A stretch of DNA of 64,000 nucleotides, taken from contig OZ220713.1 of NCBI GenBank assembly GCA_965116805.1, forward strand, positions 2,704,594-2,768,593, read 5' to 3'. The stretch is from Vicinamibacteria bacterium. Lineage in GTDB: Bacteria; Acidobacteriota; Vicinamibacteria; Marinacidobacterales; Marinacidobacteraceae. Positions 17,807 through 57,344 of this stretch are shown in pieces. The notes beneath the pieces are model-generated. The model was not told the origin of the DNA, did no database searches, and saw only the letters and a program-made list of their open reading frames with translations. A program made the position numbers and the translations under genes. Positions within the stretch are counted from its first letter, which is position 1. Every line of letters starts with the position of its first letter.

Positions 17807-19291
17807 TCAGCCCGTCGCGCGCCCCGACCGAAGGCGGCTCCGAAGCGCCGGCGCCGCGAAGCTCGCGACCGCGACCAGCAGCAGCACCAGCGCGATGGGA
17901 CTCTCGAGAAAGACCGTGTGCGAACCGGACGACAGCGCGAGCGCGCGCCGGTAGTTCGTCTCTACCATCGGCCCGAGGATCAGACCGAGCACGGCGGGGG
18001 CGAGCGGATACCCACGGCGCAGCATGAGGAAGCCCGCCAGGCCGAAGAGGAGCGCGAACCAGGCGTCGGCCAGGTTGCCCCGGAGCACGAAGGCGCCGAT
18101 GAGGGAAATCCCGACCACGAGGGGCATCAGGATCCGGGGAGGGAGGCTCACCACCCGCACCCAGAGCGGGATGCCGAGCCTCCCGACCCCCAGCATGAGC
18201 ACGACCGCCACGATGAATCCGGCGTAGAGGGCGTAGACCAGGGAGGCCTGCTCGGTCATCAGCAGGGGTCCGGGCGCGACGCCCTGCACCGTGAGGCCCC
18301 CAAGCAGGACCGCCGCGCTCGCCGAGCCGGGAACCCCGAGGGCCAGCAGCGGGATCATGGCCGCGCCCACGCAGGCGTTGTTGGCGGCCTCGGGCGCCGC
18401 GATTCCCGCCGGCTCTCCGCTGCCGAAGCGTTCCGGAGTGCGGGACACCCGCCGTTCCTCGTTCCAGGCGACGATGGAGGCGATGGTCGCGCCGGCCCCC
18501 GGAATCGCGCCGATGACCCCACCGATCGCGGAGCCGCGCAGGATGGGGCGCCAGAGACGGAAGAGGTCCCGGAAAGCCGGGAGCGCCCCCCGAATGCCTG
18601 CCGCTCCCGCCACCTTCTCCCGGCGGCCGGCCACGCCGTTCAGGGCTTCGGCGATCGCGAAGAAACCGATCAGCATGGGCACGAGGCCGAGTCCGTCCAT
18701 CAGGACCGTGGTTCCCAGCGTCAGCCGGGGGGCCCCGGTGAGGACGTCGAGACCCACGATGAAGGCGAGCAGGCCCAGCAGCGCGCTGATGATGCCCTTG
18801 AGAGGATCGCTGCCGACCAGGTTGGCCACGATGGCCAGCCCGAACACCCCGAGGCCGAAGTACTCGGGCGGCCCGAACGCGATGGCCGCCCGCGACAGGG
18901 GCCCGAGCGCGGCCACGAGCAGCAGCGTGCCCAGGACCCCGCCGCTCATGGAGGCGAAGAGGGAAATCCCGAACGCCCTGCCCGCCTCCCCCCGGCGGGT
19001 CATGGCGTAGCCGTCGAAGGTCGTCGCGAGCGCGGGAGAGCTCCCGGGGACGCCGATCGCGATCGCGGTGATGGAACCGCCGTACTCCGCCGCCATGTAG
19101 ATGGAGATCATCATCAGGAGCGCCGGGGTGGGCTCGAGGGCGAAGGTGACGGGAAGCACCAGCGCGAGGCCGACCGTCGAACTGAGGCCCGGTACTGCCC
19201 CCGCAAACACGCCGAGCACGCTGCCGCCGAGCAGCGCCGCGAGGTTCGCCGGCTGCAGCGCGGCCGCGAGCCCCTGCCCGAATTCGGTCAC
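17807..19291 (-). CDS. tctA: Tripartite tricarboxylate transporter permease TctA
   Basis: Full-length match to the TctA polytopic family. GTG start overlapping the tctB stop (GTGA). Confidence 0.85.
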   Translation of the reverse strand: MTEFGQGLAAALQPANLAALLGGSVLGVFAGAVPGLSSTVGLALVLPVTFALEPTPALLMMISIYMAAEYGGSITAIAIGVPGSSPALATTFDGYAMTRRGEAGRAFGISLFASMSGGVLGTLLLVAALGPLSRAAIAFGPPEYFGLGVFGLAIVANLVGSDPLKGIISALLGLLAFIVGLDVLTGAPRLTLGTTVLMDGLGLVPMLIGFFAIAEALNGVAGRREKVAGAAGIRGALPAFRDLFRLWRPILRGSAIGGVIGAIPGAGATIASIVAWNEERRVSRTPERFGSGEPAGIAAPEAANNACVGAAMIPLLALGVPGSASAAVLLGGLTVQGVAPGPLLMTEQASLVYALYAGFIVAVVLMLGVGRLGIPLWVRVVSLPPRILMPLVVGISLIGAFVLRGNLADAWFALLFGLAGFLMLRRGYPLAPAVLGLILGPMVETNYRRALALSSGSHTVFLESPIALVLLLVAVASFAAPALRSRLRSGRATG

Positions 19292-19731
19292 GGCAGGGGC
19301 ACTCCGAGCGTGACCACGAACAGCAGGTGGACGAAACCGCCGAACGCGAGCGGGACCGCGGCCAGGATCCACGGGGAACGTTCCCCGGAGAGCCACATGA
19401 GGCCCAGGACCAGCGGCGGAAGCGCGGCCAGGTGGCCGATCCGCGGCAGCACGACGAGGAAAACCGCGATCCAGAGCACCGCTCCGACAAGCCGGAGCAC
19501 TCCATCGCCCGCCCCGGACGCGGCCGGTGCGCCGGGCGCGGTCCGCAGCGCGAGGACGGCGGCGCAGACGATCAGGAAAATCGCCACGAGCACGGGGAAG
19601 AAGGCCGGTCCCGGCACCCCCCCGATGAGCGGCGCCGGATAGCCGCGGGCATCGAGCAGCATCCCCGCCCCCAGGAGGGCGACCAGCCCGGCCTCCAGGA
19701 GCGCAGCCGGCCGGCGGCGGTGGTCACTCAT
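19288..19731 (-). CDS. tctB: Tripartite tricarboxylate transporter small subunit TctB
   Basis: 147-aa four-TM protein between tctC and tctA, with overlapping stops and starts. Confidence 0.7.
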   Translation of the reverse strand: MSDHRRRPAALLEAGLVALLGAGMLLDARGYPAPLIGGVPGPAFFPVLVAIFLIVCAAVLALRTAPGAPAASGAGDGVLRLVGAVLWIAVFLVVLPRIGHLAALPPLVLGLMWLSGERSPWILAAVPLAFGGFVHLLFVVTLGVPLP

Positions 19732-20734
19732 TCATGAGAAGGCCCAGCCGGCCCAGCAGCACGCGGCTGGTTTCGACTTCCTCGGCGATCCAGGCCCCGA
19801 AGGCGTCCGAGTCGTCCATGACCGCGTATTCCATCGCCGCCCGGGCCATGTATTCCTGAAAACCCGCCGTCCGGATGGTCGCGAGCAGCCGCTCCCGAAG
19901 ATCGGCGCGGACCTCCGGGGAGAGGCCGGGAGGCCCCACCACGCCCCGCCAGTGGACCGGCGTCAGGTCGTAGCCCTCGTCGAGGTAGGTGGGCGTGTCC
20001 CGGAGCGCGGTGAGCGGCAGCGCCACCGCCAGCACCCGCATCGTGCCGGCCCGCAGGTGTTCACGCACGATGTTGTAGTTGGTGTGCGCCGCGTCGGTGT
20101 GGCCGCCGAGCGCCGCGACCACCGCGTCGCCGGATCCCTCGTAGGCGATCCAACGGATGTCCGGATCCCCCGCGGCGGCCCGCAGCCGCTGGAAGCCGAG
20201 GAAATGGGCCGACGCCGCCCCGAACCCCGACATCGACACTTCGCCGGGCCGCTCCCGGGCGGCTTCGATGAGGTCCTCGAGCGTCTGGAACGGGCTCTCC
20301 TCCCGCACGGCCACGAGGAAGGGATCGACCTGGATCCTGAGGATGGGCGTGAAGTCGCCGGGACCGAACGGAATCCGCCCGGTGGCCATGTTCACGGTGC
20401 CGCTCGCGGTGAACACTCCGAGCACGTACGGATCGCCGGCCCGGCCCTTCAGGTACTGCATCCCCGCGGCTCCCGCGCCCCCCTGCCGGGTCATGACCGT
20501 GACCCGCTGCCCCCCGAAGTGTTCCGGGGCGGCGTCGGCAAGCGCCCGCGCGAGCAGATCGCTCGGCCCTCCCGGAGTGGCCCACGAGACGATCTCGATC
20601 GGACGGCTCGGAAAAGCGGCCTCGTCAGGAGACGAGCCGCAAGCCGAGAGCAACGCCGTTGCCAGGAGTGACGCCCACGCCCGCCGGGCCGCAACCCAAT
20701 GAGAAGTCACGGGACCCTTGGGGGCAGCGGGCAT
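19724..20734 (-). CDS. tctC: Tripartite tricarboxylate transporter substrate-binding protein TctC (Bug family)
   Basis: Start placed at MPAAPKG within ORF 19724..21406(-). Lipoprotein signal 'LLSACGSS' and Bug/TctC-family body. Confidence 0.8.
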   Translation of the reverse strand: MPAAPKGPVTSHWVAARRAWASLLATALLSACGSSPDEAAFPSRPIEIVSWATPGGPSDLLARALADAAPEHFGGQRVTVMTRQGGAGAAGMQYLKGRAGDPYVLGVFTASGTVNMATGRIPFGPGDFTPILRIQVDPFLVAVREESPFQTLEDLIEAARERPGEVSMSGFGAASAHFLGFQRLRAAAGDPDIRWIAYEGSGDAVVAALGGHTDAAHTNYNIVREHLRAGTMRVLAVALPLTALRDTPTYLDEGYDLTPVHWRGVVGPPGLSPEVRADLRERLLATIRTAGFQEYMARAAMEYAVMDDSDAFGAWIAEEVETSRVLLGRLGLLMNE

Positions 20735-20799: not shown

Positions 20800-22842
20800 T
20801 TACATGCCCGAGACGCGGCCGGCGATCCGGTAGCACTGGAAGATGACGTGCCAGGCGATCGCCACGATCAGCAGCCAGGCCACCCAGTAGTAGTCGCCGG
20901 GGATCCCGAAGTTGCCGCCGAAGAACGGCGTGGCGTGCTCGTTCGCCATCGCCCACAGGAGCGGCAGCGACATGTAGGTGTTGTGCTTCGAGCGTAGCCC
21001 GGCGAGTGCCGGGTCGGCGGCGGCCGGGGCTTCGCCCGCCTTGACCGCCGCGATGATCCGCTGCTGCGCCGGCCAGATCCGGAACCAGACGTTGAAGGCC
21101 ATCATGGTCCCGAACATCGCGCCGGTGTGGATCAGGACCGCCCGCGGGGTGAAGGCCCCCACGTTCACGAACAGGAACACGGTGACCGCGAGCAGCAGGA
21201 AGGAGACGACGGTCGCCGCCCGGACGTTGGACTTCAGCCCGCTGTTCCAGAGCGCGTCGTAGACGAAGACCGCGACGAAGGTGATGAGCGCCATCGCGAT
21301 GGCCCCGCCGCCCCAGCCGTCGCCCGGATCGAACATCAGGCCGCCGTGCCAGAAGACGAGCAGGAGCAGCACGACGCCGGTGATCCAGGTCCAGGCGGCG
21401 CCCCACCGGAACCAGTAGAGGGCGCGCGGCATGAGTTCCGGCACCACCTTCGCCTTCGTGGCGCCGTCGAGCTTGGCGGTCATCTGGGCGTTGACGAAGT
21501 TGAAGAAGTAGAGGTGGCCGATCCAGATGATCCCCACGAAGATGTGGAGCCAGCGGAATATGAAAGTCACGCCGTCCATCAAGCCTTGCATCATGTCGCG
21601 CCTCCCTTGCCGGGCATCGGATGAGTTTTCGATTGTATCCGGGGCAAGGCCGGCCAAGGCCACGTCCGACCGGTATCCGGTGAGTTCCACGAAGCCGCGG
21701 CCCGGGGGAGTTCCGGAGGCTGCCGAACCGGCGGGTTCAACCCGGACCGCTCCCTCCCAATAGGGAATGTCGGGTCCGGCCAGGCCGGCGGGACGGCGGT
21801 TTTCCTGGTTCGGGAGGAGCGGCCGGACGATCAGGTCGAGGTCTTCCCCGGGGAGTCGAAGACGCCAACCGGCCGGATAGGGCCGGGCGTTCCCCGGGTC
21901 CGAATCGAGATCGGGCGGCATCCAGGTTTCGAGAACTTCGACCCCCGCGCCTCGAACCCTCCGGCTCGTGTCCCCGCCGGCGTCGCGCAGCGTGCCGTCG
22001 CTGTAGGACAGCGATCCGTCGCGACGCCGCAGGAGGTAGAGCATCAGGTCGCGCCCGTCCCCCAGGTTCAGGCCGAACCAGTCCCATCCGGTCTGACCGG
22101 CCGCGAGCCAGCTCGATCCGAATTCCCGGTCCAGCCACCCGCTCCCGGCGATGTCCACGTTCTCGCCGCCGAGGCCGAGCGATCCGGTCACCTCCAGACG
22201 CGGATGGCTGTAGTAGTGGCTGGCCGCCCCGCCCTCCGATTTCGGCGAGTGCCCCGCCTCCCCGTGGAACCAGGGATCGCGCGTCGGAACGGCGCTGAGT
22301 TCCATCCGGAGTCCCCGTTCGCGGTCCGCCGCCCCGAAGTGGAACGCGCCGTCGCGGTAGGCCAGGAACCACGGCTCGGACGTTCCCGGCGGGCCCTGCA
22401 TCCGGGCGATCTCCGGGTTCGGATGAGCCCCGAACCGGGCCAGGCCGGGGGCCTCCCGATGGACAGTCTGCGTGAAGACCCGCTCCCCGGTCTCCAGGTC
22501 GGCGACCGCCGCGTGCCCCATCCCCACGTGCCCCGTTCCCCAGGGGGAAGGCGCGGCCGAGGGCGCGGCAAGCGTCAACCCGGTGCGAAACAGGGTGAAC
22601 TGCCAGGCGAAGCGGCGGGAGCCGTCGGCCGCGTCGGCGAAACCGACGAAGTACCACCACTCGGTCCGGTAACCCACGTGAGCCCAGTGATCGTTCGGGA
22701 ACTCCCATGGGTAGTCCGGCGCCGCCTGCTGCCACTGCTGCGCCGCGGTGGGGGCGGGAGCCAGCAGCGACATGAAGAGCGCAGCAGCCACGAGTAGCTG
22801 GCGGAAGCGTGAAAGCCCGAGCCGAACCACCCCACGAGTCAT
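20800..22842 (-). CDS. AttH/CrtC-like lipocalin-fold protein running without a stop into a C-terminal polytopic membrane domain (possibly PuuD N-terminal-like)
   Basis: N-terminal signal peptide plus 'WEFPNDHWAHVGYRTEWWYF' AttH/hydroxyneurosporene-synthase-like motif. From MMQGLMDGVTF (about 21594) there are about 7 TM helices with a 'WLHIFVGIIWIGHLYFF' motif. A strong RBS (AGGGAGG) precedes that internal ATG, so two products are possible. Confidence 0.55.
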   Translation of the reverse strand: MTRGVVRLGLSRFRQLLVAAALFMSLLAPAPTAAQQWQQAAPDYPWEFPNDHWAHVGYRTEWWYFVGFADAADGSRRFAWQFTLFRTGLTLAAPSAAPSPWGTGHVGMGHAAVADLETGERVFTQTVHREAPGLARFGAHPNPEIARMQGPPGTSEPWFLAYRDGAFHFGAADRERGLRMELSAVPTRDPWFHGEAGHSPKSEGGAASHYYSHPRLEVTGSLGLGGENVDIAGSGWLDREFGSSWLAAGQTGWDWFGLNLGDGRDLMLYLLRRRDGSLSYSDGTLRDAGGDTSRRVRGAGVEVLETWMPPDLDSDPGNARPYPAGWRLRLPGEDLDLIVRPLLPNQENRRPAGLAGPDIPYWEGAVRVEPAGSAASGTPPGRGFVELTGYRSDVALAGLAPDTIENSSDARQGRRDMMQGLMDGVTFIFRWLHIFVGIIWIGHLYFFNFVNAQMTAKLDGATKAKVVPELMPRALYWFRWGAAWTWITGVVLLLLVFWHGGLMFDPGDGWGGGAIAMALITFVAVFVYDALWNSGLKSNVRAATVVSFLLLAVTVFLFVNVGAFTPRAVLIHTGAMFGTMMAFNVWFRIWPAQQRIIAAVKAGEAPAAADPALAGLRSKHNTYMSLPLLWAMANEHATPFFGGNFGIPGDYYWVAWLLIVAIAWHVIFQCYRIAGRVSGM

Positions 22843-23042
22843 GGAGCGCAGGCTCGCCGTCCGGTGGGCGGCGGCGGGAACGGATCGGGCTCGGAGCGCC
22901 GGCCTCCGGCCGGCATCGCGGCCACAGGCCGCGAAACGCGGACCGCCACCGTTTCCGATGGCGCGAATCAGCGCGGGTTTCGCGCTCCCGCGCGATGCCA
23001 GCCGGAGGCTGGCGCTCCGAAGCTGCCCGGCGCTCCCAGCCA

Positions 23043-25613
23043 TCAGATCTCCTGGCGGAGGGAGGTCGCATCCACGCGGGAAGCCAGCCGCGCGGGAAGG
23101 ACGGCGGCGAGGAGACCCGCCAGCACGACCGCGGCCGCCTGCGCCGCCAGGACGCCCACCGGCCAATGGAGCGTCAGGGTCCAGCCAAACCACGCCGGGT
23201 TGACGACGTGGACCAGGAGCAGGGTGAGCACGGCGCCCGCGCCGCCGCCGATCAGGAGCGCGATCCCGATGATCACCAGGGTCCGGCCGAGAAAACCGGA
23301 CGCGACCTGTCCGCGGTTCGCCCCCAGCGCCCGGTCGAGCGCCACCTCCGGGGCCCGCTCGCGCGCCAGGGTCCAGAGGAAGAGTCCGACCCCGAGCGCC
23401 GCGATCACCAGGGCGAAGACGCGCAGGAGCCCGGTCACCGCCATCGTCTGGTCGAACACCCGAAGCGCCCGCGACCGGAGGGCGGCGTTGTCCACGACAT
23501 TCGCGCCCAGCCCCAGCACCGCCTCCAGACGGGCGGCTGCCGCCGCCCGGTCGGCCCCGTCCCGGAGGTACAAGGCGGCGCCGTGAACGGGGGCCGGCGT
23601 CCCGGGCTCTGGCGGGTAGAGCGAGTTCATGAGCGTCCGGTCCAGGAACAGCGCCCCCTGTTCGTTGCCATAGTCACGGTAGACGCCGGCGACCCGCAGC
23701 GGACGGTCCGCCGTCGCGCCGGGGAGCGGCAGGGCGGCCCCCGCTTCGAGTCCCAGCCGGCGCGCCAGCGGCTCGGAGACCAGCAGCTCCTCCTCCCCGA
23801 ATCCGCGAAGCGCCGCCTCCCGATCTCCCAGGATGGAGAACCGGTCCCCGGCCTCCGGAAGGGCTGCGTCCACCCCCAGGACGGCGACCGGCCGCCCTTC
23901 GAGCCGAACTCGCAACGCCCGGAGCAGATCGCGGTCCCGAACGTCCGGATCCGCGGCGGTCGCCGCCAGCACCTCGGCGGAGAGCGTCCGGCGCTCGGAC
24001 GCGATCGAGCGCGCCCCGCCCGCTCCCCCGGCCCGCGAAACGTAAATGTCGGCAGCCAGCGTCTCGCCCAGCCACGCGTCGAGGGTTGCCCGGAAACTCC
24101 CGATCAGGGCGCTCACCCCGACGAGCATGGCGACCGCCACCACCAGCGCCGCCGCCGGCGGTCCGGTGGAGCCGGGCTCCCGGAGGGCAGCGAGAATTCC
24201 CCGGCCGACCGCCGAGCCCTGTCGGTTCCACAGCCGTCCTCCCCACCGAATGAGAGCGTCCGGGAGGAGCGCCGCCCCGACAAGCAGCGCGCCGGCCGCC
24301 CCGAATCCGCTTCCGGGAAGCGCCGGCCAGCTGCCGGGATCGAGCGCCGCCCAACCGGCAGCTCCGATCAGCGCCGTTCCGGCGAGCGGCGGCCCCAGCC
24401 GCCAGAAGCGGCGGCGGGCGGGGGACGGCGAAGCGCGTCCCGGGGCGAGCAGGGTCACCGGCGCGCGGGTCGCCTCCGCGAAGACCTGCGGCGCCGCGCC
24501 GGCGAGCGCTGCAGCCAACGCGACGAGCCCGGCCAGCACCACGACCTGCGGATCGATCGTCAGTCCCTCGATCCGCTCCAGCAGATAGAGGTTCGAGATC
24601 GTCGCGCTGACGCGGTCCAGCGAGACGCCAGCGGCCAGGGCCCCCACCGGAATGCCGAGTACGGCGCCAGCGAGCGCCATGAGCAACACCTCGCCGAGGA
24701 GCAGCGCTCCCACGCGCCGGCCCGAGGCGCCGAGCGCCCGGTAGAGGCCGATCTCCTGACGGCGCGCGGCGAGCGCGGCGCGGACGCTCGCGTACACGAG
24801 GAACGCGGCCACCAGCAGGCTGACCGCGGAGAGCGCGAGGAGATTCAGCCGGAACGCGGAGAAGAGTTCGGCCCCTTCCGCGCGCAGGGTTCCACTCTCC
24901 TCGACCCTGACGCCGGGAATCCGGCCGGACAGCGCCCTCCGGATCGCCTCTGTGTCCGATCCTCCCGCCACCGACACCTCGATCCGGTCAAGACCCGGCC
25001 GCCCGCGGAGCGCCTGCGCGTACGCGAGGTCCAGGAATGCGGAGGCGCGCCCGTCCTCACTCGGGTAGGTCCCCGCCACCAGCGTCGGGCGCCGGTTCGC
25101 GGGGCCCGCGCCATCGGGTGCGATCCACACCGGATCCAGGAGGCCGACCCCGAGCCGGTCCGCGACCCGCTCGGGAAGGACGATGCCTCCGGAGAAGAAG
25201 ACCTCGGGCGCGAGAGTTCCCTCGTCCCCCTCGGCGCCTGCGAAACCGAAGCCTCCGGAAACCAGGTCCACTCCCCACGCGGGGACCGATGCCTGCCGGT
25301 CGAGGGTTCCCACCCGGAGTCCGGCCAGGCGGAGCACCGGCGCGGCGCCGCGGACTCCCTCGGTAGCGAGGACGGCCGGCCACGCCTCGTCCGGGACGCT
25401 TCCGGCTTCCTCCACGAGACCGGTCACGACGAGGTCGGCGCCGGCGGAGATGACCTCGAGACTGGCGTCGAGGGTTTCCAGCGCCGCCCGGTTCAGGAGC
25501 TGGACCGACAGCACCGCGCCGGCGCCCAGCGCGATGGCCAGGACCGGGAGGGCGCCGAGCGCGGGCGCCGCCCGGAAGCGCGCCGGTGCGGCGCGAAGGA
25601 GCAGCCGGATCAC
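23043..25613 (-). CDS. ABC transporter permease with two FtsX-like domains (MacB/YbbP type)
   Basis: 856 aa with two sets of four C-terminal TM helices separated by large periplasmic domains. Confidence 0.8.
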   Translation of the reverse strand: MIRLLLRAAPARFRAAPALGALPVLAIALGAGAVLSVQLLNRAALETLDASLEVISAGADLVVTGLVEEAGSVPDEAWPAVLATEGVRGAAPVLRLAGLRVGTLDRQASVPAWGVDLVSGGFGFAGAEGDEGTLAPEVFFSGGIVLPERVADRLGVGLLDPVWIAPDGAGPANRRPTLVAGTYPSEDGRASAFLDLAYAQALRGRPGLDRIEVSVAGGSDTEAIRRALSGRIPGVRVEESGTLRAEGAELFSAFRLNLLALSAVSLLVAAFLVYASVRAALAARRQEIGLYRALGASGRRVGALLLGEVLLMALAGAVLGIPVGALAAGVSLDRVSATISNLYLLERIEGLTIDPQVVVLAGLVALAAALAGAAPQVFAEATRAPVTLLAPGRASPSPARRRFWRLGPPLAGTALIGAAGWAALDPGSWPALPGSGFGAAGALLVGAALLPDALIRWGGRLWNRQGSAVGRGILAALREPGSTGPPAAALVVAVAMLVGVSALIGSFRATLDAWLGETLAADIYVSRAGGAGGARSIASERRTLSAEVLAATAADPDVRDRDLLRALRVRLEGRPVAVLGVDAALPEAGDRFSILGDREAALRGFGEEELLVSEPLARRLGLEAGAALPLPGATADRPLRVAGVYRDYGNEQGALFLDRTLMNSLYPPEPGTPAPVHGAALYLRDGADRAAAAARLEAVLGLGANVVDNAALRSRALRVFDQTMAVTGLLRVFALVIAALGVGLFLWTLARERAPEVALDRALGANRGQVASGFLGRTLVIIGIALLIGGGAGAVLTLLLVHVVNPAWFGWTLTLHWPVGVLAAQAAAVVLAGLLAAVLPARLASRVDATSLRQEI

Positions 25614-26341
25614 CGTACGCCCGAGGAGGGCGGCGGCGTCTCGGCAAGGAGCCGCCCCCCGCGCAGCCGCAGCCGGGTGTCGGCCCGGGCGGCAAGCTCG
25701 AGGTCGTGGGTCGCGAGCAGCAGGCCGGCGCTCCGCTCGCGGACCAGGCGGAAGAGCAGGTCCGCCACCGCTCCGGCGCCGCGCGCATCGAGGTTGCCGG
25801 TCGGTTCGTCGGCCAGCAGCAGCGCGGGCCGGAGCAGGAGCGCCCGGGCGATCGCCGTCCGCTGCATCTCGCCCCCCGAGAGGCGCCGCGCCGGCTCGCG
25901 GGCGCGGCCTTCCAGTCCGACCGCCGCGAGGAGCCGATCGGCGGCGGCGCCCACCTTCGCCGGGCCCCCGGCTTCGTCCGGCACCTCGCCGACACGGGCG
26001 ATGCGCGCCGGCAACAGCACGTTCTCCCGAACCGTCAGGTAGGGCACGAGATGGAAGAACTGGAAGACGAGCCCCACGAATCGGCCGCGCAGCCGGCTGC
26101 GCTCCGGATCGGAGAGGCCGGCCAGCTCTTTCCCCCCGAGACGAACGGTCCCTTCGCTGGGGACTTCGATGCCCGCCGCGACGTGGAGCAGCGTGCTCTT
26201 GCCGCTACCCGAACGGCCGGCGACGGACACGGTCTCGCCGGCCTCGACCGTCAGGTTGACGGAGTCGAGAACGGTCAGTTCCGAGCCGTCCGCCTGGGGA
26301 TAGCGCCGGACGACGTCGGCCAGTTCGAGGACCGCGCTCAT
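25610..26341 (-). CDS. ABC transporter ATP-binding protein
   Basis: Walker A 'GRSGSGKST', signature 'LSGGEMQR', Walker B 'LLADEP'. Confidence 0.9.
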   Translation of the reverse strand: MSAVLELADVVRRYPQADGSELTVLDSVNLTVEAGETVSVAGRSGSGKSTLLHVAAGIEVPSEGTVRLGGKELAGLSDPERSRLRGRFVGLVFQFFHLVPYLTVRENVLLPARIARVGEVPDEAGGPAKVGAAADRLLAAVGLEGRAREPARRLSGGEMQRTAIARALLLRPALLLADEPTGNLDARGAGAVADLLFRLVRERSAGLLLATHDLELAARADTRLRLRGGRLLAETPPPSSGVR

Positions 26342-27351
26342 CCCCCGGGATTGCCGCGGACTCCGTTCCTCGCCGCCACCACCTGGGCCATGACCGCAAG
26401 CGCGATCTGGTCCGGCGTCCGCGCCCCGATCGGAAGCCCGATAGGGGCCGCGATGCGGGCGAGCGCGTCCTCGGAGACGCCGCGCTCCCGCAGCCGGTCG
26501 AGGCGCCGCGCGTGCGTCTTGCGGCTACCGAGCGCCCCCACGTAGAACGCGGGACTCCCGAGCGCCAGCGCGAGCGCCGGGTCGTCCAGCTTCGGGTCGT
26601 GCGTCAGGGTTGCCACCGCGGTGCTCGCGTCGAGCCCGATCCGCTGGAACCCCTCCGCGGGCCACTCGTTCACGATCTCCACGCCGGGAAAACGCTCGGG
26701 GGAGGCGAACACCGGGCGCGGGTCGCAGATCACCGGGCGGTAGCCGACCCGGACCGCGAGACCGCAGAGGGTCTGCGCGATGTGGACGCCGCCCACGATG
26801 ACCAGCGATTCGGACGGCAGGATGACGTCGCAGAACACGGACCCGTGTTCGGTCTCGGTCGCCTGCGGCCGGCCCGCCGCGAGGGCCGCCTCGGCGGCGC
26901 CGGCCAGCGCCGGGGAACCGATCCCCGGCGACCCGGCGACCTTGACCAGGCTCTCCCCGAGGTTCGGCCCGGAGGTCACGACCGCCAGCGCCACGGCGTC
27001 GCGGCGCCGCATCCCCTCGCGGACCGGACCCAGCAGCTCCCGGTCGGCCCGTTCGACGAACACCGTGAGCGAGCCCCCGCAGGCGAGACCCACGCCCCAG
27101 GCCAGTTCGTCGGAGACCGCGAAGCGAAGCAGCCGGGGCTCGCCGCTCTCGATGACCTCGCGCGCCGTCTCGACCACGCTCGATTCCACACAGCCCCCAC
27201 TGACCGAGCCGGCGATCCGGCCCTCGCGGTCGATCGTCATGCGGGCGCCGGGACGCCTCGGTCCCGAACCCCAGGTATGCACCACCGTGGAAAGCGCGAG
27301 GGGACCCTCGCCGGTCAGCCAGGAGTCCAGAACGGGAGCGATGTCGCGCAT
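26338..27351 (-). CDS. XdhC/CoxF-family molybdoenzyme maturation factor
   Basis: Two-domain XdhC/CoxI architecture ('HTWGSGPRRPGARM...', Rossmann-like 'VIVGGVHIAQTL'). Confidence 0.8.
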   Translation of the reverse strand: MRDIAPVLDSWLTGEGPLALSTVVHTWGSGPRRPGARMTIDREGRIAGSVSGGCVESSVVETAREVIESGEPRLLRFAVSDELAWGVGLACGGSLTVFVERADRELLGPVREGMRRRDAVALAVVTSGPNLGESLVKVAGSPGIGSPALAGAAEAALAAGRPQATETEHGSVFCDVILPSESLVIVGGVHIAQTLCGLAVRVGYRPVICDPRPVFASPERFPGVEIVNEWPAEGFQRIGLDASTAVATLTHDPKLDDPALALALGSPAFYVGALGSRKTHARRLDRLRERGVSEDALARIAAPIGLPIGARTPDQIALAVMAQVVAARNGVRGNPGG

Positions 27352-27370: not shown

Positions 27371-28609
27371 TTATCGTGCGGCCAGCGACCGCGGCCGGGA
27401 GGGGAGACGCGGCGCGGCCGCGCGGCCCACCGGATCCAGCTTCGCCAGGTGCTCCGCCAGCGAGCGCACGCTCGCCAGGTTGTTCACGGGAAGGAAGTCG
27501 TGGATGTGGGGAAGCGCCGCGGCCATCCCCCGGGTGAGCGGCTCGTATCCCTCGTCGGACAGCAGCGGGTTCAGCCAGACCACGCGCCAGGCGAGCCCGC
27601 GCAGCCGCTCCATTTCGGACGCCACCAGCGCCGGATCGCCGCGGTCCCAGCCGTCGCTCACCAGGAGCACCACCGCGGCGGAGGTGGGCAGCCGCCGCGC
27701 CCACTCCAGGTTGAACCGGTGGAGCGCTTCGCCGATACGGGTCCCGCCCGACCAGTCGCGCACGGTTTCCGAGGCCTCGCCGAGGGCCCGGTCCACCCGC
27801 CGGTCGGCGAGCTTGCGGGTGATGCGGGTGAGCCGGGTGGCGAAGACGAAAGCCTCCACCCGCCCGGGCGACCCGTGCGAGAGCCCGTAGAGGAAGTGGA
27901 GCAGCACCCGCGCCGTCTGTTCCATGGAGCCGCTCACGTCGGCGAGCACGATGAGCGGCCGCGGTTTCTCCCGGCGCCGCCGCCGCTCGAGGCGCACCCA
28001 CTCGCCGCCCGACCGGAGCCCGCGCCGCAGCGTCCGGCGCAGGTCCAGATTCCGGTTGCCGCCGGGCCGGAACCGCACCACCCGGCGGCGGGCGGCCCGC
28101 CACCCGGCGTCCCGGATCAGCGCCCGCACTTCCCGCAGTTCGTCCTCGTCGAGGTCGGAGAAGTCGCGGTGCTCGAGGGACTCCCGGTCGCTCCAGGTGC
28201 GCCGGGCGAACGGCTGGCGCGGCTGCTCGTCGGCGCCGGTGTCCCTCCCGGGGGCAACCGGCCGGAAGGTCGCCTGCCGGACCGGGGAGCGCTGCTTCCG
28301 GAGCATCATTCCGGGGAGCCGGGCCCGCGTCCAGCGTTCGGGCGGCGTTTCCCAGAACAGCGCGAACGCGGCGTCGAAGAGTTCGAGGTCTTCGCGCCGG
28401 TGAATGAGCAGCGCCCGGGCGGCGGCGTGGAACTCCTCGCGCCGGAAGACCTCGATGAGCGGGAGCGCCTGCGCCAGGTCCAGCATCCGGGCGGTCGAGA
28501 CCGGGAGCCCGATCCCCCGCAGCAGGCGCCCGAAGAGCGTGAGGTTCTGGAGCAGCGGCGGGAGCGCCGCTCCGCGTTCCGGTTGCGGACCCCGCGCCGC
28601 GGCGGTCAA
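27371..28609 (-). CDS. CoxE-like VWA-domain protein
   Basis: VWA MIDAS motif 'LADVSGSM' and the CoxE-family body. A TTG start overlapping the coxD stop (TTGA) is proposed; an ATG at about 28486 is the alternative. Confidence 0.7.
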   Translation of the reverse strand: MTAAARGPQPERGAALPPLLQNLTLFGRLLRGIGLPVSTARMLDLAQALPLIEVFRREEFHAAARALLIHRREDLELFDAAFALFWETPPERWTRARLPGMMLRKQRSPVRQATFRPVAPGRDTGADEQPRQPFARRTWSDRESLEHRDFSDLDEDELREVRALIRDAGWRAARRRVVRFRPGGNRNLDLRRTLRRGLRSGGEWVRLERRRRREKPRPLIVLADVSGSMEQTARVLLHFLYGLSHGSPGRVEAFVFATRLTRITRKLADRRVDRALGEASETVRDWSGGTRIGEALHRFNLEWARRLPTSAAVVLLVSDGWDRGDPALVASEMERLRGLAWRVVWLNPLLSDEGYEPLTRGMAAALPHIHDFLPVNNLASVRSLAEHLAKLDPVGRAAAPRLPSRPRSLAAR

Positions 28610-29517
28610 GAGACTCCGGCGGCCAGCCGGGTGAGGATGGCCCCCGCCCGTTCTCCACGGACCATCTCGAGATCGTCCCGGTACTTGAGCAGCGCGCCCA
28701 GCGTGCGGTCCACCGCGGCCTCGTCGAGGGCGGTCTTCCCGAGCGACGCCAGCGCCATCGTCCAGTCCAGGGTCTCGGACACCCCCGGGCGCTTGAAGAG
28801 ATCGAGCTCGCGCAACTCCTGGGCGAACCGGGTGGCCTCCGCCGCGAGTTGCGCCGCCGCCTGGGGCACCCGCTCGCGGACGATCTCGAGCTCGCGTTCG
28901 TAGCTGGGATAGGGAATCCAGTGGTAGAGGCAGCGCCGCTTGAGCGCGTCGTGGACCTCCCGGGTCCGGTTCGAGGTGAGGACCACGACCGGCGGCGCCG
29001 CCGCCCGGATGGTGCCGATCTCGGGAATCGTGATCTGGAAGTCCGAGAGGACCTCCAGCAGATACGCCTCGAACTCCTCGTCGCTGCGGTCCACCTCGTC
29101 GATGAGCAGCACCGGCCGGCGTTCCGGCGACGAGGTCTCGATGGCGTGCAGCAGGGGCCGGCGGAGCAGGAAGTCCGCACCGAACAGGTCCTGTTGTTCC
29201 ATGGCGGCCCCCCGGCTCTCCGCCAGGCGGATGGCCAGCATCTGCCGGGTGTAGTTCCACTCGTAGGCCGCCTGGCCGATGTCGAGTCCCTCGTAGCACT
29301 GGAGCCGGATCAGCGGGGCGCCGAGCACCGCCGCCGTCACCTTGGCGAGTTCCGTCTTCCCGACGCCGGCCTCGCCCTCGAGGAAGAGGGGGCGCTCGAG
29401 ACGGAGGGCCAGGAAGAGCGCGGTGGCGAGGGCGCTGTCGGCGATATACCCCTGCCCCGCGAGTTCCCCGGTGAGTTCGGGGACCGAGGAAAGGGTCGCC
29501 GTCCGGGTCGCCGACAA
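28606..29517 (-). CDS. CoxD-like MoxR AAA+ ATPase
   Basis: Walker A 'GEAGVGKTE' and Walker B 'LLIDEVDR'. TTG start abutting the coxM stop. Confidence 0.85.
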   Translation of the reverse strand: MSATRTATLSSVPELTGELAGQGYIADSALATALFLALRLERPLFLEGEAGVGKTELAKVTAAVLGAPLIRLQCYEGLDIGQAAYEWNYTRQMLAIRLAESRGAAMEQQDLFGADFLLRRPLLHAIETSSPERRPVLLIDEVDRSDEEFEAYLLEVLSDFQITIPEIGTIRAAAPPVVVLTSNRTREVHDALKRRCLYHWIPYPSYERELEIVRERVPQAAAQLAAEATRFAQELRELDLFKRPGVSETLDWTMALASLGKTALDEAAVDRTLGALLKYRDDLEMVRGERAGAILTRLAAGVS

Positions 29518-30372
29518 CTATCCGGCGCGCTCGGCGGCTGCGGCCAGCGCGCGCTTCGTGTACACCCCGGCGAGGTGGGCCCGGAACTCTCCCGAGGCGT
29601 AGAGATCGCCGAGCGGCTCGTCGAAGGCTTCACCGACGCACGCCGCGGCAGCCGCGATCCGGTCCGCGCTGGCCGGGCCGCCGCAGAGCGCCGCCGCGGC
29701 CGCGTCCGCCAGCACCGCCTTGCCGGTGACCCCGTTGATGCCGATCGCGCAGCTCGCGACGTTGCCGCCGTCCAGCCCGACGCAGGCGGCCACCCCGACC
29801 ACGGCGTAGCTGGAGGCCGGATGGCGGTGCTTCAGGTAGGCGCCGCCCGCCGCGCAGGGAACCCGGACCGAAGTGATGACTTCGTTGTCCGCGAGCGCGG
29901 TGGTCAGGATGTCCACGAAGAAGTCGGAGGCGGCGATCGTCCGTTCGCCGCCCGCCCCAACGGCGGTGACCTCGGCGCCGAGCGCCAGCATCGCGGCGGG
30001 ATAGTCGGCTCCCGGATCGGCGTGGGCCAGGCTGCCCCCGATCGTCCCCCGGTTCCGCACCTGGATGTCCCCGATGGCGGCCGCGGTTTCGGCCAGCATC
30101 GGGCATCCCCCCCGGACCGCGGCCGAGTCGGCTACCGCGGCGTGGGTGGCCAGCGCGCCGATGACGAGGCTGTCGCCGTCGGCGGAGATGTCGGACAAAC
30201 CGGGGATCCGCCCGATGTCCACGAGGGCGGCCGGCTGCGCGGCGCGCAGCTTCATGGCCGGAATCAGGCTGTGCCCGCCGGCGACCAGCTTGGCGTCCGG
30301 AAGCGAGGAAAGCAGCTCCACCGCCTCGGCGACCGAAGCGGCGCGGTGGTAGTCGAATTGGCTTGGAAACAT
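29518..30372 (-). CDS. coxM: Molybdo-flavoprotein medium (FAD-binding) subunit, CoxM-like, form II cluster
   Basis: 'AGGHSLIP' FAD-binding motif and the CO dehydrogenase flavoprotein C-terminal domain. Confidence 0.85.
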   Translation of the reverse strand: MFPSQFDYHRAASVAEAVELLSSLPDAKLVAGGHSLIPAMKLRAAQPAALVDIGRIPGLSDISADGDSLVIGALATHAAVADSAAVRGGCPMLAETAAAIGDIQVRNRGTIGGSLAHADPGADYPAAMLALGAEVTAVGAGGERTIAASDFFVDILTTALADNEVITSVRVPCAAGGAYLKHRHPASSYAVVGVAACVGLDGGNVASCAIGINGVTGKAVLADAAAAALCGGPASADRIAAAAACVGEAFDEPLGDLYASGEFRAHLAGVYTKRALAAAAERAG

Positions 30373-30384
30373 CGGAATCTCCTC

Positions 30385-32745
30385 TCAGGCGCCGTTGCCG
30401 GCCGCCTGGACGGCCCGCCAGATCCTCTCCGGGGTGAGCGGCAGCTCAATGTGGGTGACTCCCAGGGGAGCCAGCGCGTCCAGCACCGCGTTCGCCACCG
30501 CGGGGGTCGCGGCGATGGTGCCCATCTCGCCCGCGCCCTTGACCCCGAGCGGGTTGTGGGGCGACGGGGTCTCGATCCGGTCCACCTCGATCCCCGGCAG
30601 GAGATCGGCGCGCGGCACCGCGTATTCGAGCAGGGTCCCCGAGAGGAGCTGGCCGTCATCGGAATAGGCGCCGTCCTCGGTCAGCGCCTGGCCTACGCCC
30701 TGGACGATGCCGCCCTGGATCTGGCCCTCCACGATCATGGGGTTGATCACCTTGCCCACGTCGTCCACCGCCACGTAGCGGAGGATGCGGACTTCCCAGG
30801 TGTCGGAGCAGACCTCGACCTCGCAGATGTGCGAACTCGCCGGGAAGGTGAAGTTCGCCGGGTCGTAGAAGCTCACGAAATTGAGTCCCGGCTCCACTCC
30901 CTCGGGCAGGTTGTGCGCGGTGTAGGCGGCGAACGCCAGCTCGCCGAAGTCTTTCCCGCTCTCCGGAGAGCCCTTCACGTGGACCCGGCCGGTGTCCCGG
31001 TCGTAGACCACGTCCTCCTCGGCGGCCTCGAGCAGGTGGGCCCCGATCTGGAGGACCTTGGCGCGCACCTTCTCGGCGCTCCTGACGAGCGCCGAGCCGC
31101 CCACACAGGCGCTCCGGCTGCCGTAGGTGCCCATGCCGAAGTTGACGCGGCCGGTGTCTCCGTGGACCACCTCCACGCTCTCGATGGGGACGCCGAGCTC
31201 GTCGGCGACCACCTGCGCGAGGGTGGTCTCGTGGCCCTGTCCGTGGGCGTGGGAGCCGGTGAAGACGCTGATCTGTCCGGTGGGATGGACGCGCACCTCA
31301 CCGCTCTCCCAAAAGCCCACCGCCGAACCGAGCGACCCGGCAACCGCCGAGGGCGCGGGACCGCTGGCCTCGATGCAGCACACGACCCCGACGCCGCGCA
31401 GCTTGCCCTCGGCGCGCGCCTCGGCCTGCGCCTGGCGCATGCCGGCGTAGTCGGCGTTGTCGGCGGCGGTCGCCATCAGCCGGTCGTAGTCGCCGCTGTC
31501 GTAGAGGAACGCCACCGGCGTCTGGTAGGGGAAGTCCTCCTTGGGAATCGCGTTCTGGCGCCGCAGGTCCAGGGGGTCCCGGCCCAGCCGGGCGGCCGCC
31601 AGGTCCACCAGGCGTTCGACGAGGTAGGCCGCCTCCGGCCTGCCCGCGCCCCGGTAGGCATCCACCGGCACCGTGTTGGTGAGCGTGCCGTGCACCTTGC
31701 CGAACACGCCGGGCATCTTGTAGTTCCCGGAGAGCAGCGTGATGTAGAGCGCCGTGGGGATGAGGGGGGCGAAGGTCGAGAGGTAGGCCCCCTGGTTCGC
31801 CCAGGTCTCCACGTCGAGCCCGGTGAAGGTGCCGCCGCTCGTCATGGCGAGCTTGGCGACGGTGACGTGGTCGCGCCCCTGGGAGTCGGTCATCTGGCTC
31901 TCGGTCCGGGTCGCGACCCAGCGGGCGGGCCGGCCCACCTCGCGCGCCACCCAGGGCACGATGACTTCCTCGGGGTAGTGGAAGATCTTGCTGCCGAACC
32001 CGCCGCCCACGTCGGGAGAGATCACCCGCAGCTTGCTCTCGGGAATCCCGAGCGTGAAGGCGGAGAGCAGCAGCCGGATCGGGTGCGGGTTCTGGCTGGT
32101 CGTCCAGACCGTCATCTCTTCCGATGCCGCATCCCACTGCGCCGCCGCGGCCCGCGGCTCCATCGCCGTGGGGATGAGGCGCTGGTTCACGAGCTCGACC
32201 TCCACGATCTCGTCCGCCTCGGCGAACGCCTTGTCGCAGGCCTCCTGGTCACCGAGCGCCCAGTGGTAGGAGACGTTGTCCTCGATCTCGGCGTGGACGA
32301 GGGGCGCACCCTCGTCCATGGCGCCGCGCGCGTCCACCACGGTCGGGAGCGGCTCGTAGTCCACCTCGATCGCCTCGACCGCATCGGCGGCGATGTAGGG
32401 AGTTCGGGCCGCGACCACCGCCACCGAATCCCCGACGTGGCAGACCCGGTCGGTCACCACGACGGGCCGGTCCGGAACCTTGGTGTCGGGCACCAGCCAG
32501 CCGCAGGGGAGCGAGCCGCAGCCGCCGTCCTTGAAGTCCTGGCCGGTGAAGACGGCCACGACGCCGTCCATGGCGTCCGCGGCCGAAGTGTCGATCCGGG
32601 TGATCCGGGCGTGCGCCTCGGGGCTGCGCTTGATGGCCACGTACACCATGTCCGGAAACTGGATGTTGGCGACGTAGCGTCCCTTGCCCTGAATGAAGCG
32701 GGGGTCTTCCACCCGCTTGACCGAAGTCCCTACGTAACGGCCCAT
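30385..32745 (-). CDS. Molybdopterin-binding large subunit, form-II CoxL-like (putative CODH/xanthine dehydrogenase family)
   Basis: Active-site loop 'VDAYRGAGRPEA' (AYRGAGR is the form-II signature). 786 aa. Good RBS (GAGGAGGA). Confidence 0.85.
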   Translation of the reverse strand: MGRYVGTSVKRVEDPRFIQGKGRYVANIQFPDMVYVAIKRSPEAHARITRIDTSAADAMDGVVAVFTGQDFKDGGCGSLPCGWLVPDTKVPDRPVVVTDRVCHVGDSVAVVAARTPYIAADAVEAIEVDYEPLPTVVDARGAMDEGAPLVHAEIEDNVSYHWALGDQEACDKAFAEADEIVEVELVNQRLIPTAMEPRAAAAQWDAASEEMTVWTTSQNPHPIRLLLSAFTLGIPESKLRVISPDVGGGFGSKIFHYPEEVIVPWVAREVGRPARWVATRTESQMTDSQGRDHVTVAKLAMTSGGTFTGLDVETWANQGAYLSTFAPLIPTALYITLLSGNYKMPGVFGKVHGTLTNTVPVDAYRGAGRPEAAYLVERLVDLAAARLGRDPLDLRRQNAIPKEDFPYQTPVAFLYDSGDYDRLMATAADNADYAGMRQAQAEARAEGKLRGVGVVCCIEASGPAPSAVAGSLGSAVGFWESGEVRVHPTGQISVFTGSHAHGQGHETTLAQVVADELGVPIESVEVVHGDTGRVNFGMGTYGSRSACVGGSALVRSAEKVRAKVLQIGAHLLEAAEEDVVYDRDTGRVHVKGSPESGKDFGELAFAAYTAHNLPEGVEPGLNFVSFYDPANFTFPASSHICEVEVCSDTWEVRILRYVAVDDVGKVINPMIVEGQIQGGIVQGVGQALTEDGAYSDDGQLLSGTLLEYAVPRADLLPGIEVDRIETPSPHNPLGVKGAGEMGTIAATPAVANAVLDALAPLGVTHIELPLTPERIWRAVQAAGNGA

Positions 32746-32784: not shown

Positions 32785-33252
<468 letters not shown>

Positions 33253-33398
33253 GGGGAGGTTCCTCCTCGCCGGGAACGAATCATCCAAATCGCGAGAGTA
33301 TCCGGGAATGGCGGAAATCCGCAAGAGCAGAGGGACCGTCCGCCCCGACCCGGCAGGAAGTGCGCCGGCAACCTAGACTACGGACCGAACCGCAACCC

Positions 33399-34394: not shown

Positions 34395-34401
34395 GGGCTG
34401 G

Positions 34402-34438
34402 GAGCGCCGGTGTTCACACCGGCACGCCCGGCGCTCCG
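34402..34438 (+). terminator. Candidate terminator hairpin after the VWA gene (GGAGCGCCGG...CCGGCGCTCC with a nested CCGGTG-ttca-CACCGG)
   Basis: 10-bp perfect stem 8 nt after the stop codon. No U-tract, which is common in high-GC genomes. Confidence 0.35.
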
Positions 34439-34528
34439 CGCCGCGCACGGCGCAACCCGACGCAGTCTCACGGCGCCTCCCCCAACGGACGCATAATCGC
34501 CTTCTCGCTTCCGCCCAAGGAGTCCCCG

Positions 34529-40603: not shown

Positions 40604-40654
40604 CGCCGGATTCTACGGGAGGCCCCGGCTTCCGGCCGGGCCGCGCCGGCGCGG

Positions 40655-48516: not shown

Positions 48517-48538
48517 CGCCGCGTTCCGGCGCGGCCCC

Positions 48539-52225: not shown

Positions 52226-52458
52226 GGAGTCCCCTCCTTTTCCGGACTTTCGAGCATACCAGTGCGTTTGGCGAGTAGAGCGCCCACAATTCGGGTGGCG
52301 CGTGGGCGAGGGACCGCCGGCCAGTCCTCCCGGTGGAGGCCGGCATCGCGCGGGAGCGCGAAACCAGCGCCGAGGACGCAGAGTCCTGCCAATGGGGGTG
52401 CTGCAACTCCTTCGAGTCCCCACCCGGCACCGGTTCTGATTCAATCCGCGCTCGGACC

Positions 52459-57218: not shown

Positions 57219-57344
57219 GTTGCACGGAGATTTTGACGCCGCTCCAGGCGTCCCTCCCGATGCGAGACTGGCTGAATGCGGTTTCGACCGCCTCTCGGCG
57301 GTCGATGCCGGCCGGAGGCCGGCGCTCCGAGCCGCTTCCCGGCC

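Follow-up and report, generated by a model that had tools for sequence, protein, structure and literature searches.

Introduction

In Escherichia coli the transporter YbbAP, an ATP-binding cassette (ABC) system of type VII, works with a periplasmic hydrolase as its partner, TesA (PMC12646458), and the AttH-like family, represented by the structure of NE1406 from Nitrosomonas europaea (PDB 2ich), is associated in genomes with ABC transporters of the LolD type (PMC2954199). Here we analyse a 64,000-nucleotide stretch of the genome of a Vicinamibacteria bacterium (contig OZ220713.1; hereafter "the window") in which the genes for an ABC ATPase and an FtsX-type permease are followed by a single open reading frame (ORF) that joins an AttH-like double lipocalin to a seven-transmembrane (7-TM) domain of the DUF989 family. 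Upstream stand the genes of a molybdenum hydroxylase of the cox type, form II.

The studied member of DUF989 is PuuD, the membrane cytochrome c urate oxidase of Agrobacterium fabrum. Its topology was predicted to be N-out, with an eighth helix that returns the cytochrome c to the periplasm, and it was proposed to move electrons across the membrane. The same work recognised two groups of DUF989 protein – full-length proteins with a cytochrome c, found in purine clusters, and short proteins with four TM helices – and reported that every full-length purine-linked member carries the cytochrome c (PMC4562309). On the side of the molybdenum hydroxylases, CoxG extracts menaquinone for the molybdenum-containing carbon monoxide dehydrogenase (Mo-CODH; bioRxiv 10.1101/2024.01.09.574806).

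Results

A lineage-specific gene fusion

The ORF encodes, in one frame, the Pfam domains CrtC (residues 60-243), Lipocalin_9 (246-390) and Urate_ox_N (422-661). The AttH half scores 116 bits against PF07143 (cut-off 22.5) and 106 bits against PF17186 (cut-off 26.2); the membrane half scores 141.6 bits against PF06181, the DUF989 family (cut-off 26.9; E 4.5e-41), and covers model positions 4-258 of 295. No NCBIfam model matches the fused protein. A preliminary description of this DNA, made from its letters alone, had claimed that an AttH-like lipocalin runs without a stop codon into a C-terminal domain of about 264 aa and 7 TM helices, reminiscent of the N-terminal membrane domain of PuuD. Pfam and the seven predicted helices confirm the first point, and the hidden Markov model scan that returned PF06181 confirms the second.

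The architecture is not peculiar to one genome. A protein search gave about 30 protein clusters, 62-90% identical, with the three domains in common; beyond these, the nearest matches correspond to one half or the other, being either AttH-like proteins of about 395 aa or PF06181 proteins. The two halves share a single, stop-free frame in 20 Vicinamibacteria genomes that each represent a species (L001-L020; L-numbers denote related genomic loci and P-numbers proteins from the protein library). In a scan of one genome per species the closest match was JAJDVI010000065, at 96% identity, and the result placed the window in an acidobacterium of the Vicinamibacteria / 'Ca. Marinacidobacterium' type, a group known from metagenome-assembled genomes. 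Among the fused genes the linker measures 22, 25, 26 or 37 codons, always in frame, and a 4-codon indel at the N-terminus of DUF989 is likewise in frame. That the linker varies in length and yet stays in frame argues that the reading frame is under selection.

The preliminary description had warned of an error in assembly or sequencing, a missing base or stop at about 21595-21600. A few versions of the gene are indeed split, and come from metagenome contigs that have low coverage or are frameshifted (L081, with 2x coverage, and P0031-P0033). However, the same in-frame fusion is present in 20 independently assembled species genomes, some of whose assemblies are labelled 'chromosome' or are multi-megabase contigs of 2-4.5 Mb, with linkers that differ between genomes in sequence as well as in length. 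We give an artefact practically no credence and regard it as effectively excluded: the ORF is a genuine, lineage-specific gene fusion, found in marine and sponge-associated Acidobacteria. In the literature we found no paper that describes either the fusion architecture or the operon arrangement, in keeping with the earlier remark that the arrangement had not been described.

A promoter-like box and ribosome-binding site within the linker

Between the end of AttH and the start of DUF989 the fused genes carry a DNA block, CCGGATACAATCG, 37 nt upstream of an internal ATG. No codon position varies in CCCGGATACAATCG or AAGGGAGG across 17 fused sequences (the window and L001-L016), whereas in the coding sequence on either side third positions are only 73% identical towards AttH and 85% towards DUF989. 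Of about 47 high-GC Vicinamibacteria loci with a free-standing DUF989 gene, 41 have the motif TA[C/G/A]AAT-CG upstream of that gene, at the same distance. When both strands of the window were searched (128 kb), TAnAAT was found five times only, always on the minus strand (57184, 40615, 21637, 6794, 4928); the four hexamers outside the linker lie at the 5' ends of genes or in intergenic DNA, and TAnAAT may be a useful promoter marker in this genome. A scan with consensus patterns returned no more intrinsic terminators than expected.

The AGGGAGG ribosome-binding site (RBS) that the preliminary description had placed before an ATGATG is present (Table 1). In L017-L020 TACTCT replaces TACAAT, the GGAGG and the fusion being kept. 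The linker is a former intergenic region, and to judge from these sequence features it retains the -10 element and RBS of the downstream gene. Because the -10-like box and RBS persist inside the linker, both products are likely: a separate DUF989 protein of 264 aa (29 kDa) is probably made besides the 72-kDa fusion. The alternative posed at the outset, a fusion or an internally initiated second product, was in this respect well framed.

Origin of the fusion

In five relatives (L045, L047, L048, L050 and L051) AttH and DUF989 are encoded by two adjacent, co-directional genes, and the AttH of unfused relatives ends about 10 residues past a conserved ELTGYR strand. The comparison shows that the ancestor of these marine Vicinamibacteria had the two genes side by side and in the same direction, that the AttH stop was lost, and that an intergenic stretch of about 25 codons was turned into an in-frame linker, which has been kept in at least 20 species. 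Separate genes in relatives had been put forward as a possible objection to the fusion; such genes do exist in deeper relatives, and they show only that the fusion is derived.

The number of events is a further issue. In neighbour-joining trees of AttH and of XdhC the unfused lineages fall between the two fused clades (the window with L001-L016, and L017-L020); in the permease tree they do not. With two of the three trees placing them so, there may have been two fusion events rather than one. L045 offers an observation of its own: at about 6240-6260 the AttH stop codon, TAA, is also the first half of TAAAAT, the -10-like box of the downstream DUF989 gene, and this overlap of stop and promoter box sits exactly where other lineages fused.

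Topology and predicted structure

At its start the fused protein has an N-region with positive charge, then a hydrophobic helix at residues 10-27 and a TAA-QQ site, which make up a putative signal peptide as judged by eye, from hydropathy and from an AlphaFold2 model. Modelled alone, the DUF989 domain forms seven long helices (predicted local distance difference test, pLDDT, 86.9; predicted template modelling score, pTM, 0.87). Loops 1-2, 3-4 and 5-6 and the C-terminus are rich in Lys and Arg, and loops 2-3 and 6-7 are acidic, a distribution that indicates an N-out/C-in orientation. The topology prediction advised in the preliminary description thus gives seven helices, N-out/C-in, and with DUF989 N-out, the attachment of an AttH domain exported by Sec to helix I raises no topological conflict.

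In the full-length AlphaFold2 model the AttH half is rich in beta structure (pLDDT above 90), linker residues 397-417 fall below pLDDT 50, and overall pTM is 0.59. The fused protein is thus modelled as two rigid bodies on a flexible, disordered tether.

AttH and its ABC transporter

Over residues 41-392 the AttH half matches PDB 2ich, annotated 'putative AttH' (E 1.3e-37). The best NCBIfam scores of the ABC ATPase are with LolD (206 bits) and YbbA (192 bits), then with FtsE and MacB; since all lie below the equivalog cut-offs, we take the protein to be a member of the LolD/MacB/FtsE/YbbA group with no named orthologue. The permease has the FtsX modules of four TM helices and the MacB-type periplasmic domains that define type VII (MacB/FtsX-type) transporters, and it finds weak sequence matches in the PDB to MacB and YtrF.

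ATPase, permease and AttH recur as a triad in unrelated genomes – the Agrobacterium pAt plasmid (L086), L082, L084, L087 and L088 – and the order that the preliminary description had likened to that of Agrobacterium, namely ATPase, double-FtsX permease and AttH, does match the arrangement on pAt. A library of 1.84 billion proteins holds two FtsX/MacB_PCD permeases fused to AttH (P0350, 1321 aa; P0331, 826 aa), and these lend support to AttH as the likely periplasmic partner of the permease. The same library holds a LysE translocator fused to AttH (P0333, 583 aa). Taken together the three proteins show that the tethering of AttH to membrane proteins has happened repeatedly.

Hydrolase genes stand beside two of the triads. 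In L084 (1-9140), from an uncultured bacterium, a GDSL-lipase/ABC/permease set is directly followed by the ABC/permease/AttH set, and in L086 (2818-7618) a gene for a GDSL/SGNH (TesA-like) hydrolase adjoins the ABC-permease-AttH module.

Association with a form II cox operon

CoxL (30385-32745) carries AYRGAGR, the form II signature, at residue 371, and not the form I motif AYXCSFR; it scores 695 bits against TIGR02416, the NCBIfam model of the CODH large subunit (cut-off 991), and the genes run coxS-coxL-coxM. The full order coxS-L-M-D-E-xdhC-ATPase-permease-AttH-DUF989, headed in relatives too by the coxS-like gene, is kept in 25 of the 25 related genomes in which the module occupies this position. 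It persists where AttH identity is down to 41% and permease identity to 35%, while the flanking genes change, being TctCBA in some relatives and SSF/amidohydrolase in others. An order kept while the flanks change supports co-transcription well and, to some degree, a common role, although the coupling is confined to this one clade.

The start of the ABC ATPase had been said to overlap the stop of coxF/xdhC. The overlap is real, 4 nt long (ATGA, with the ATPase ATG on the xdhC stop), and the junction is tight across the clade except in L047. The larger claim, that the genes from coxS onward form one overlapping-gene chain, is only in part correct. It describes xdhC/ATPase and the ATPase/permease junction, which also overlap by 4 nt (GTGA, with the permease GTG on the ATPase stop), but the cox genes are mostly separated by gaps of 0-39 nt: 39 nt between coxS and coxL, 12 between coxL and coxM, none between coxM and coxD, about 0 or a small overlap between coxD and coxE, and 19 between coxE and xdhC. 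Co-transcription of the ABC module with the form II cox-type operon, as suggested by order and spacing, is among the least secure of our conclusions.

Elsewhere in the window, at 47554-52444 on the minus strand, the genes of another molybdenum hydroxylase are clustered in the order M-S-L. The large subunit (48539-50884) carries AYRCSFR, the signature of the form I Mo-Cu CODH, and next comes a gene for an XdhC-like protein that has a metal-binding YHS domain at its C-terminus. With AYRCSFR in one cluster and AYRGAGR in the other, cox clusters of form I and of form II are both present in the window. A stand-alone CoxG gene (PF06240, SRPBCC; 40163-40603, minus strand) lies about 7 kb from either, and the TAGAAT at 40615 is 12 nt upstream of its annotated start.

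The DUF989 half and its family

The short DUF989 family has more than 5000 homologues, mostly free-standing and about 260 aa long, those listed being 63-83% identical, and the DUF989 domain of the window is equivalent to the free-standing 259-264-aa proteins of its relatives. In an alignment of 71 members five histidines – H17, H156, H204, H220 and H249, in domain numbering – are invariant, together with many Arg, Asn and Trp residues of the cytoplasmic loops. The invariant positions are concentrated in helices I, V, VI and VII and loops 1-2 and 5-6; of the five histidines, some lie on the periplasmic side of the domain and the others on the cytoplasmic side. DUF989 may be a histidine-rich membrane redox protein related to the membrane domain of PuuD; we count this among our least secure conclusions. 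A supposed resemblance in helix I to the heme-b oxidase HemJ (PF03653) proved unsupported: only one of the 71 members matches PF03653, with E 1.6.

Free-standing DUF989 genes were found in several settings. At 14 loci from Marinimicrobia and other marine taxa (L052, L055, L057, L060, L063, L066-L068, L070-L073, L077 and L079) the gene immediately before the 7-TM DUF989 gene encodes a 1-Cys peroxiredoxin (AhpC/TSA), and in L056, L058, L059 and L065 DUF989 closes a cluster of Fur, rubrerythrin, a CCG-Fe-S protein and DUF3501. These are settings of oxidative stress or redox chemistry that have nothing to do with purines. In other Vicinamibacterales (L021, L025, L036, L043 and L046) it lies inside a set for cobalamin salvage and uptake – CbiZ, CbiB, a BtuF-like binding protein, a TonB receptor, FecCD and an ABC ATPase – that is flanked by coxS-like and coxL/coxM-like genes (43% identity). 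P0337, a fragment, has CbiB fused to DUF989; P0280 and P0298 are tandem double DUF989 proteins of 719 aa and 733 aa. A redox theme for DUF989 is plausible, and no single pathway emerges from these contexts.

The kinship with PuuD raises the question of purine catabolism, in which the membrane half would be a urate oxidase of the PuuD type acting downstream of a xanthine-dehydrogenase-like CoxSLM. The match to PF06181 at E 4.5e-41 is what such a reading would lead one to expect, as are the name 'urate hydroxylase PuuD' that NCBI gives to some 259-aa homologues and the membership of CoxSLM in the xanthine-oxidase superfamily. Yet the window protein has no cytochrome c domain, CXXCH motif or eighth helix, although all full-length purine-linked DUF989 proteins carry the cytochrome c (PMC4562309); CoxL bears the form II motif, with scores far below cut-off for the NCBIfam xanthine dehydrogenase models; and homologues lie in unrelated contexts. 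Among the roughly 30 proteins of the window that were scanned, none belongs to a purine-catabolism family. The missing cytochrome c and helix VIII, the gene context and the CoxL motif rule out a PuuD urate oxidase or purine operon for practical purposes: we rate the idea as highly improbable, and effectively excluded.

A second alternative would make the module an accessory to an electron route: DUF989 would be the membrane electron acceptor or quinone-linked module of CoxSLM, and ABC-AttH would handle an isoprenoid quinone as the periplasm-side counterpart of CoxG. CrtC proteins, the characterised relatives of AttH, act on prenyl groups. The arrangement of genes is suggestive, since xdhC is directly followed by DUF989 in L039 and L044 and a coxS-like gene adjoins DUF989 in other Vicinamibacterales; so are the five invariant histidines on both sides of the membrane and the conserved cytoplasmic loops. 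Precedents exist in the transmembrane electron transfer proposed for PuuD (PMC4562309) and in the extraction of menaquinone by CoxG for Mo-CODH (bioRxiv 10.1101/2024.01.09.574806). However, the window already has a CoxG gene, AttH is predicted to be periplasmic and CoxSLM has no signal peptide, and in many genomes DUF989 lies far from any cox gene. We think this alternative improbable.

Layout of the locus

Features of the block are collected in Table 1. The window has a G+C content of 70-72%, and between 20800 and 33324 all real genes lie on the minus strand. The start of the coxE-like gene is approximate, a probable TTG that overlaps the coxD stop to judge from the junction sequence; the coxD-like protein scores 272 bits, below cut-off, with an NCBIfam MadB-like model.

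Table 1. Features of the cox-ABC-AttH-DUF989 block, with positions in the window.
Feature	Position	Strand	Basis and remarks
coxS-like [2Fe-2S] small subunit	32785-33324	-	Pfam Fer2_2 and Fer2; heads the form II cox-type operon
coxL-like molybdopterin large subunit, form II type	30385-32745	-	Pfam MoCoBD_1/2, Ald_Xan_dh_C
coxM-like FAD subunit	29518-30372	-	Pfam FAD_binding_5, CO_deh_flav_C
coxD-like AAA+ maturation ATPase	28606-29517	-	Pfam AAA_5, AAA
coxE-like VWA protein	27371-~28609	-	Pfam VWA_CoxE, E 1e-59
xdhC/coxF-like Moco-insertion chaperone	26338-27351	-	Pfam XdhC_CoxI, XdhC_C
ABC ATPase, LolD/YbbA/MacB type	25610-26341	-	Pfam ABC_tran
Duplicated FtsX permease, 856 aa	23043-25613	-	Pfam 2x FtsX, 2x MacB_PCD; type VII ABC, YbbP-like architecture
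REP/MITE-like palindromic insertion in the permease/fused-gene gap	22843-23042 (203-nt gap, 22843-23045)	-	RNA fold energy
Fused ORF, 680 aa (ATG 22842, stop 20800-20802)	20800-22842	-	Putative signal peptide, AttH-like double lipocalin, linker and 7-TM DUF989
AttH-like domain, predicted periplasmic (CrtC N-terminal lipocalin and Lipocalin_9), residues 60-390	21673-22665	-	Pfam E 4e-33, 1e-30
Linker, ~24-25 codons	21595-21666	-	Atypical A/T third positions; comparison with unfused relatives
TACAAT, -10-like hexamer in the linker, 37 nt upstream of the internal ATG	21632-21637	-	Invariance in fused sequences
AGGGAGG, RBS for the internal start	21601-21607	-	Sequence
7-TM DUF989 (Urate_ox_N) domain, 264 aa, from ATGATG (21589-21594)	20803-21594	-	Pfam E 1.7e-42 (domain alone)

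The gap between permease and fused gene has a folding energy of -145.9 kcal/mol, against -108.9 for shuffled sequences (z -7.3), and is predicted to form a very stable long hairpin. It looks like an element of the repetitive extragenic palindrome (REP) or miniature inverted-repeat transposable element (MITE) kind inserted into the operon, and not like a plain spacer. Partial copies of its arms occur in the window at 52342-52372 (plus strand) and 57303-57333; the arms also recur at other positions in L012 and L015, and most relatives have no such element at the permease/fused-gene site. Rfam gave nothing significant, neither a riboswitch nor another known RNA, for the linker, the 203-nt gap or the leader of one free-standing DUF989 gene.

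Downstream, 65 nt after the fused ORF, the minus strand encodes the tripartite tricarboxylate transporter TctCBA (17807-20734) and, beyond it (12684-16012), an MmgE/PrpD-family protein and an S15 peptidase. As TctCBA follows the fused gene in L001-L016 only, and at variable spacing, it lies outside the conserved core. Upstream, divergent from coxS on the plus strand (33360-35542), are genes for a VWA_2 protein and a formamidase/acetamidase.

Discussion

The explanation that we favour, and hold as a whole with moderate confidence, combines a genuine fusion, a dual product, an AttH protein that is the partner of a type VII ABC transporter, and a link to the cox operon. If YbbAP-TesA is taken as an analogue and the permease-AttH fusions as a guide, ATPase and permease would form a type VII machine of the mechanotransmission kind. 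Such a machine could lift a hydrophobic and possibly prenyl-bearing molecule from the outer leaflet of the inner membrane and pass it into the AttH barrel for binding or for hydration or hydrolysis. The AttH domain would stay in the periplasm, tethered to the membrane by the flexible linker; fusion to DUF989 would then hold it beside the permease while free DUF989 is still made. Least secure of all is the idea that the whole block handles one membrane-associated compound or one electron route. In its fullest form the block would be one unit in which DUF989 is a two-site electron module, with histidine-ligated heme or metal, that passes electrons from the form II hydroxylase to the quinone pool or a periplasmic acceptor, and in which the type VII transporter and tethered AttH extract or modify a prenylated carrier on the periplasmic side. 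This we consider a long shot.

A number of observations weigh against the favoured explanation. No -35 element can be recognised for the TACAAT box, nor did the consensus scan return a complete sigma-70 site. No fixed interface between AttH and DUF989 is predicted in the full-length AlphaFold2 model, so judged from that model the fusion may be only a tether, or may be merely tolerated. Sister lineages part the two genes: in L034, L040 and L089 DUF989 is convergent (inverted) and stands behind an SSF symporter, and in L039 and L044, where xdhC is directly followed by DUF989, the ABC-AttH module lies elsewhere. With DUF989 inverted or ABC-AttH absent at the position, AttH and DUF989 are not obligate partners. 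Outside the clade the triad was beside cox genes in none of five contexts (L082, L084, L087 and L088 have the triad without cox genes, L083 AttH alone), and no AttH-DUF989 fusion from outside the clade is among the best 150 of 7001 matches in the 1.84-billion-protein library. Free-standing DUF989 genes, finally, keep heterogeneous company, from peroxiredoxin and rubrerythrin to cobalamin salvage.

The main rival draws on several of these points. It holds that the fusion is neutral read-through, in which a stop was lost by chance in a GC-rich genome where stops are rare; the N-out topology of DUF989 would allow it to be tolerated, the halves would have unrelated functions, and working DUF989 would come from the internal promoter. 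A linker that is leftover intergenic DNA, complete with -10 box and RBS, speaks for it, and the missing interface, the inverted or AttH-less sister lineages, the heterogeneous contexts of DUF989 and the fusions of AttH to other proteins (an FtsX permease, LysE) agree with it. But the fusion has been kept in 20 species through at least four in-frame indels and no frame-breaking one; it may have arisen twice; and L017-L020 keep it without the TACAAT box. On balance we judge a merely tolerated fusion of functionally unrelated halves unlikely, while giving it more weight than any of the other alternatives.

The fusion joins families that were already known and is restricted to a single uncultured clade; it is not a new kind of system. 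Its significance is limited accordingly, and the mechanism is one we infer. What the locus offers is a connection between three widespread and functionally opaque groups of protein: form II CODH-like enzymes; AttH-type lipocalins with FtsX-type ABC transporters, known by structure rather than by function; and short DUF989 proteins, with thousands of highly conserved homologues of which only the distant PuuD has been studied. The fusion is a natural topology marker, in that the N-terminus of DUF989 must face the periplasm. Along with the permease-AttH fusions of other genomes it favours AttH in the role of periplasmic partner to a type VII ABC machine, and the clade-wide operon link hints at a connection of the AttH, ABC and DUF989 proteins with a molybdenum hydroxylase. 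The locus also illustrates cleanly how a fused ORF can keep the promoter-like box and RBS of its downstream half, which annotation pipelines would miss. Should the electron-module reading be true, it would give a first functional handle on the form II 'CODH-like' enzymes and on the DUF989 family of about 260 aa.

Comparison with known systems

PuuD shares with the window protein the PF06181/DUF989 domain, the N-out orientation and a pattern of conservation that centres on helices I, II, V and VI and cytoplasmic loops I-II and V-VI (PMC4562309). It has eight helices, whereas the window domain has seven and ends 9 residues after helix VII; and it carries a cytochrome c domain, whereas the window domain has one Cys, no CXXCH and no Pfam match to cytochrome c. 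The 7-TM proteins of about 260 aa fit neither of the two groups into which DUF989 has been divided. With CoxG and Mo-CODH the parallel is conceptual only: in each case a lipid-binding accessory that acts at the membrane is encoded with a cox-type enzyme. CoxG, an SRPBCC protein anchored at its C-terminus, faces the cytoplasm, while the window AttH is predicted to be periplasmic and has a lipocalin fold; and the enzyme that CoxG serves is Mo-CODH, while the one beside AttH is of form II, with a separate CoxG gene in the window.

NE1406 has the same AttH-like fold, which the AttH half matches over its whole length (PMC2954199), but is a stand-alone soluble or periplasmic protein rather than one fused to DUF989. 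On the Agrobacterium pAt plasmid (pAtLMG292a) the order is that of the window – ATPase, permease of about 800 aa, AttH-like lipocalin – and the AttH is 34% identical to the window half. There, however, AttH is a free protein of 355 aa without a membrane domain, and its neighbours are an SGNH hydrolase gene and genes of sugar metabolism, not cox genes. BceAB-BceS, mentioned in PMC12646458, is a precedent for an FtsX-type ABC transporter that works with a membrane-embedded partner; that partner is a histidine kinase, unfused, and the families are unrelated.

The closest parallel in design is YbbAP-TesA. Both systems have a LolD/YbbA-like ATPase, a permease of one polypeptide with two FtsX modules and two MacB-type periplasmic domains, and a partner encoded alongside the transporter, in the window a putatively Sec-exported one. 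The partner of YbbAP is a GDSL esterase, whereas in the window it would be a double lipocalin of the AttH/CrtC fold, covalently tethered to a 7-TM protein, in a module coupled by its operon to a molybdenum hydroxylase. The window permease scores 18 bits against the YbbP model (cut-off 999) and the ATPase 192 against the YbbA model (cut-off 336); the proteins are not YbbA/YbbP orthologues, and the likeness is thus one of mechanism and not of membership. By analogy, the two would likely share a logic in which a hydrophobic molecule is extracted from the inner membrane and passed to the periplasmic partner.

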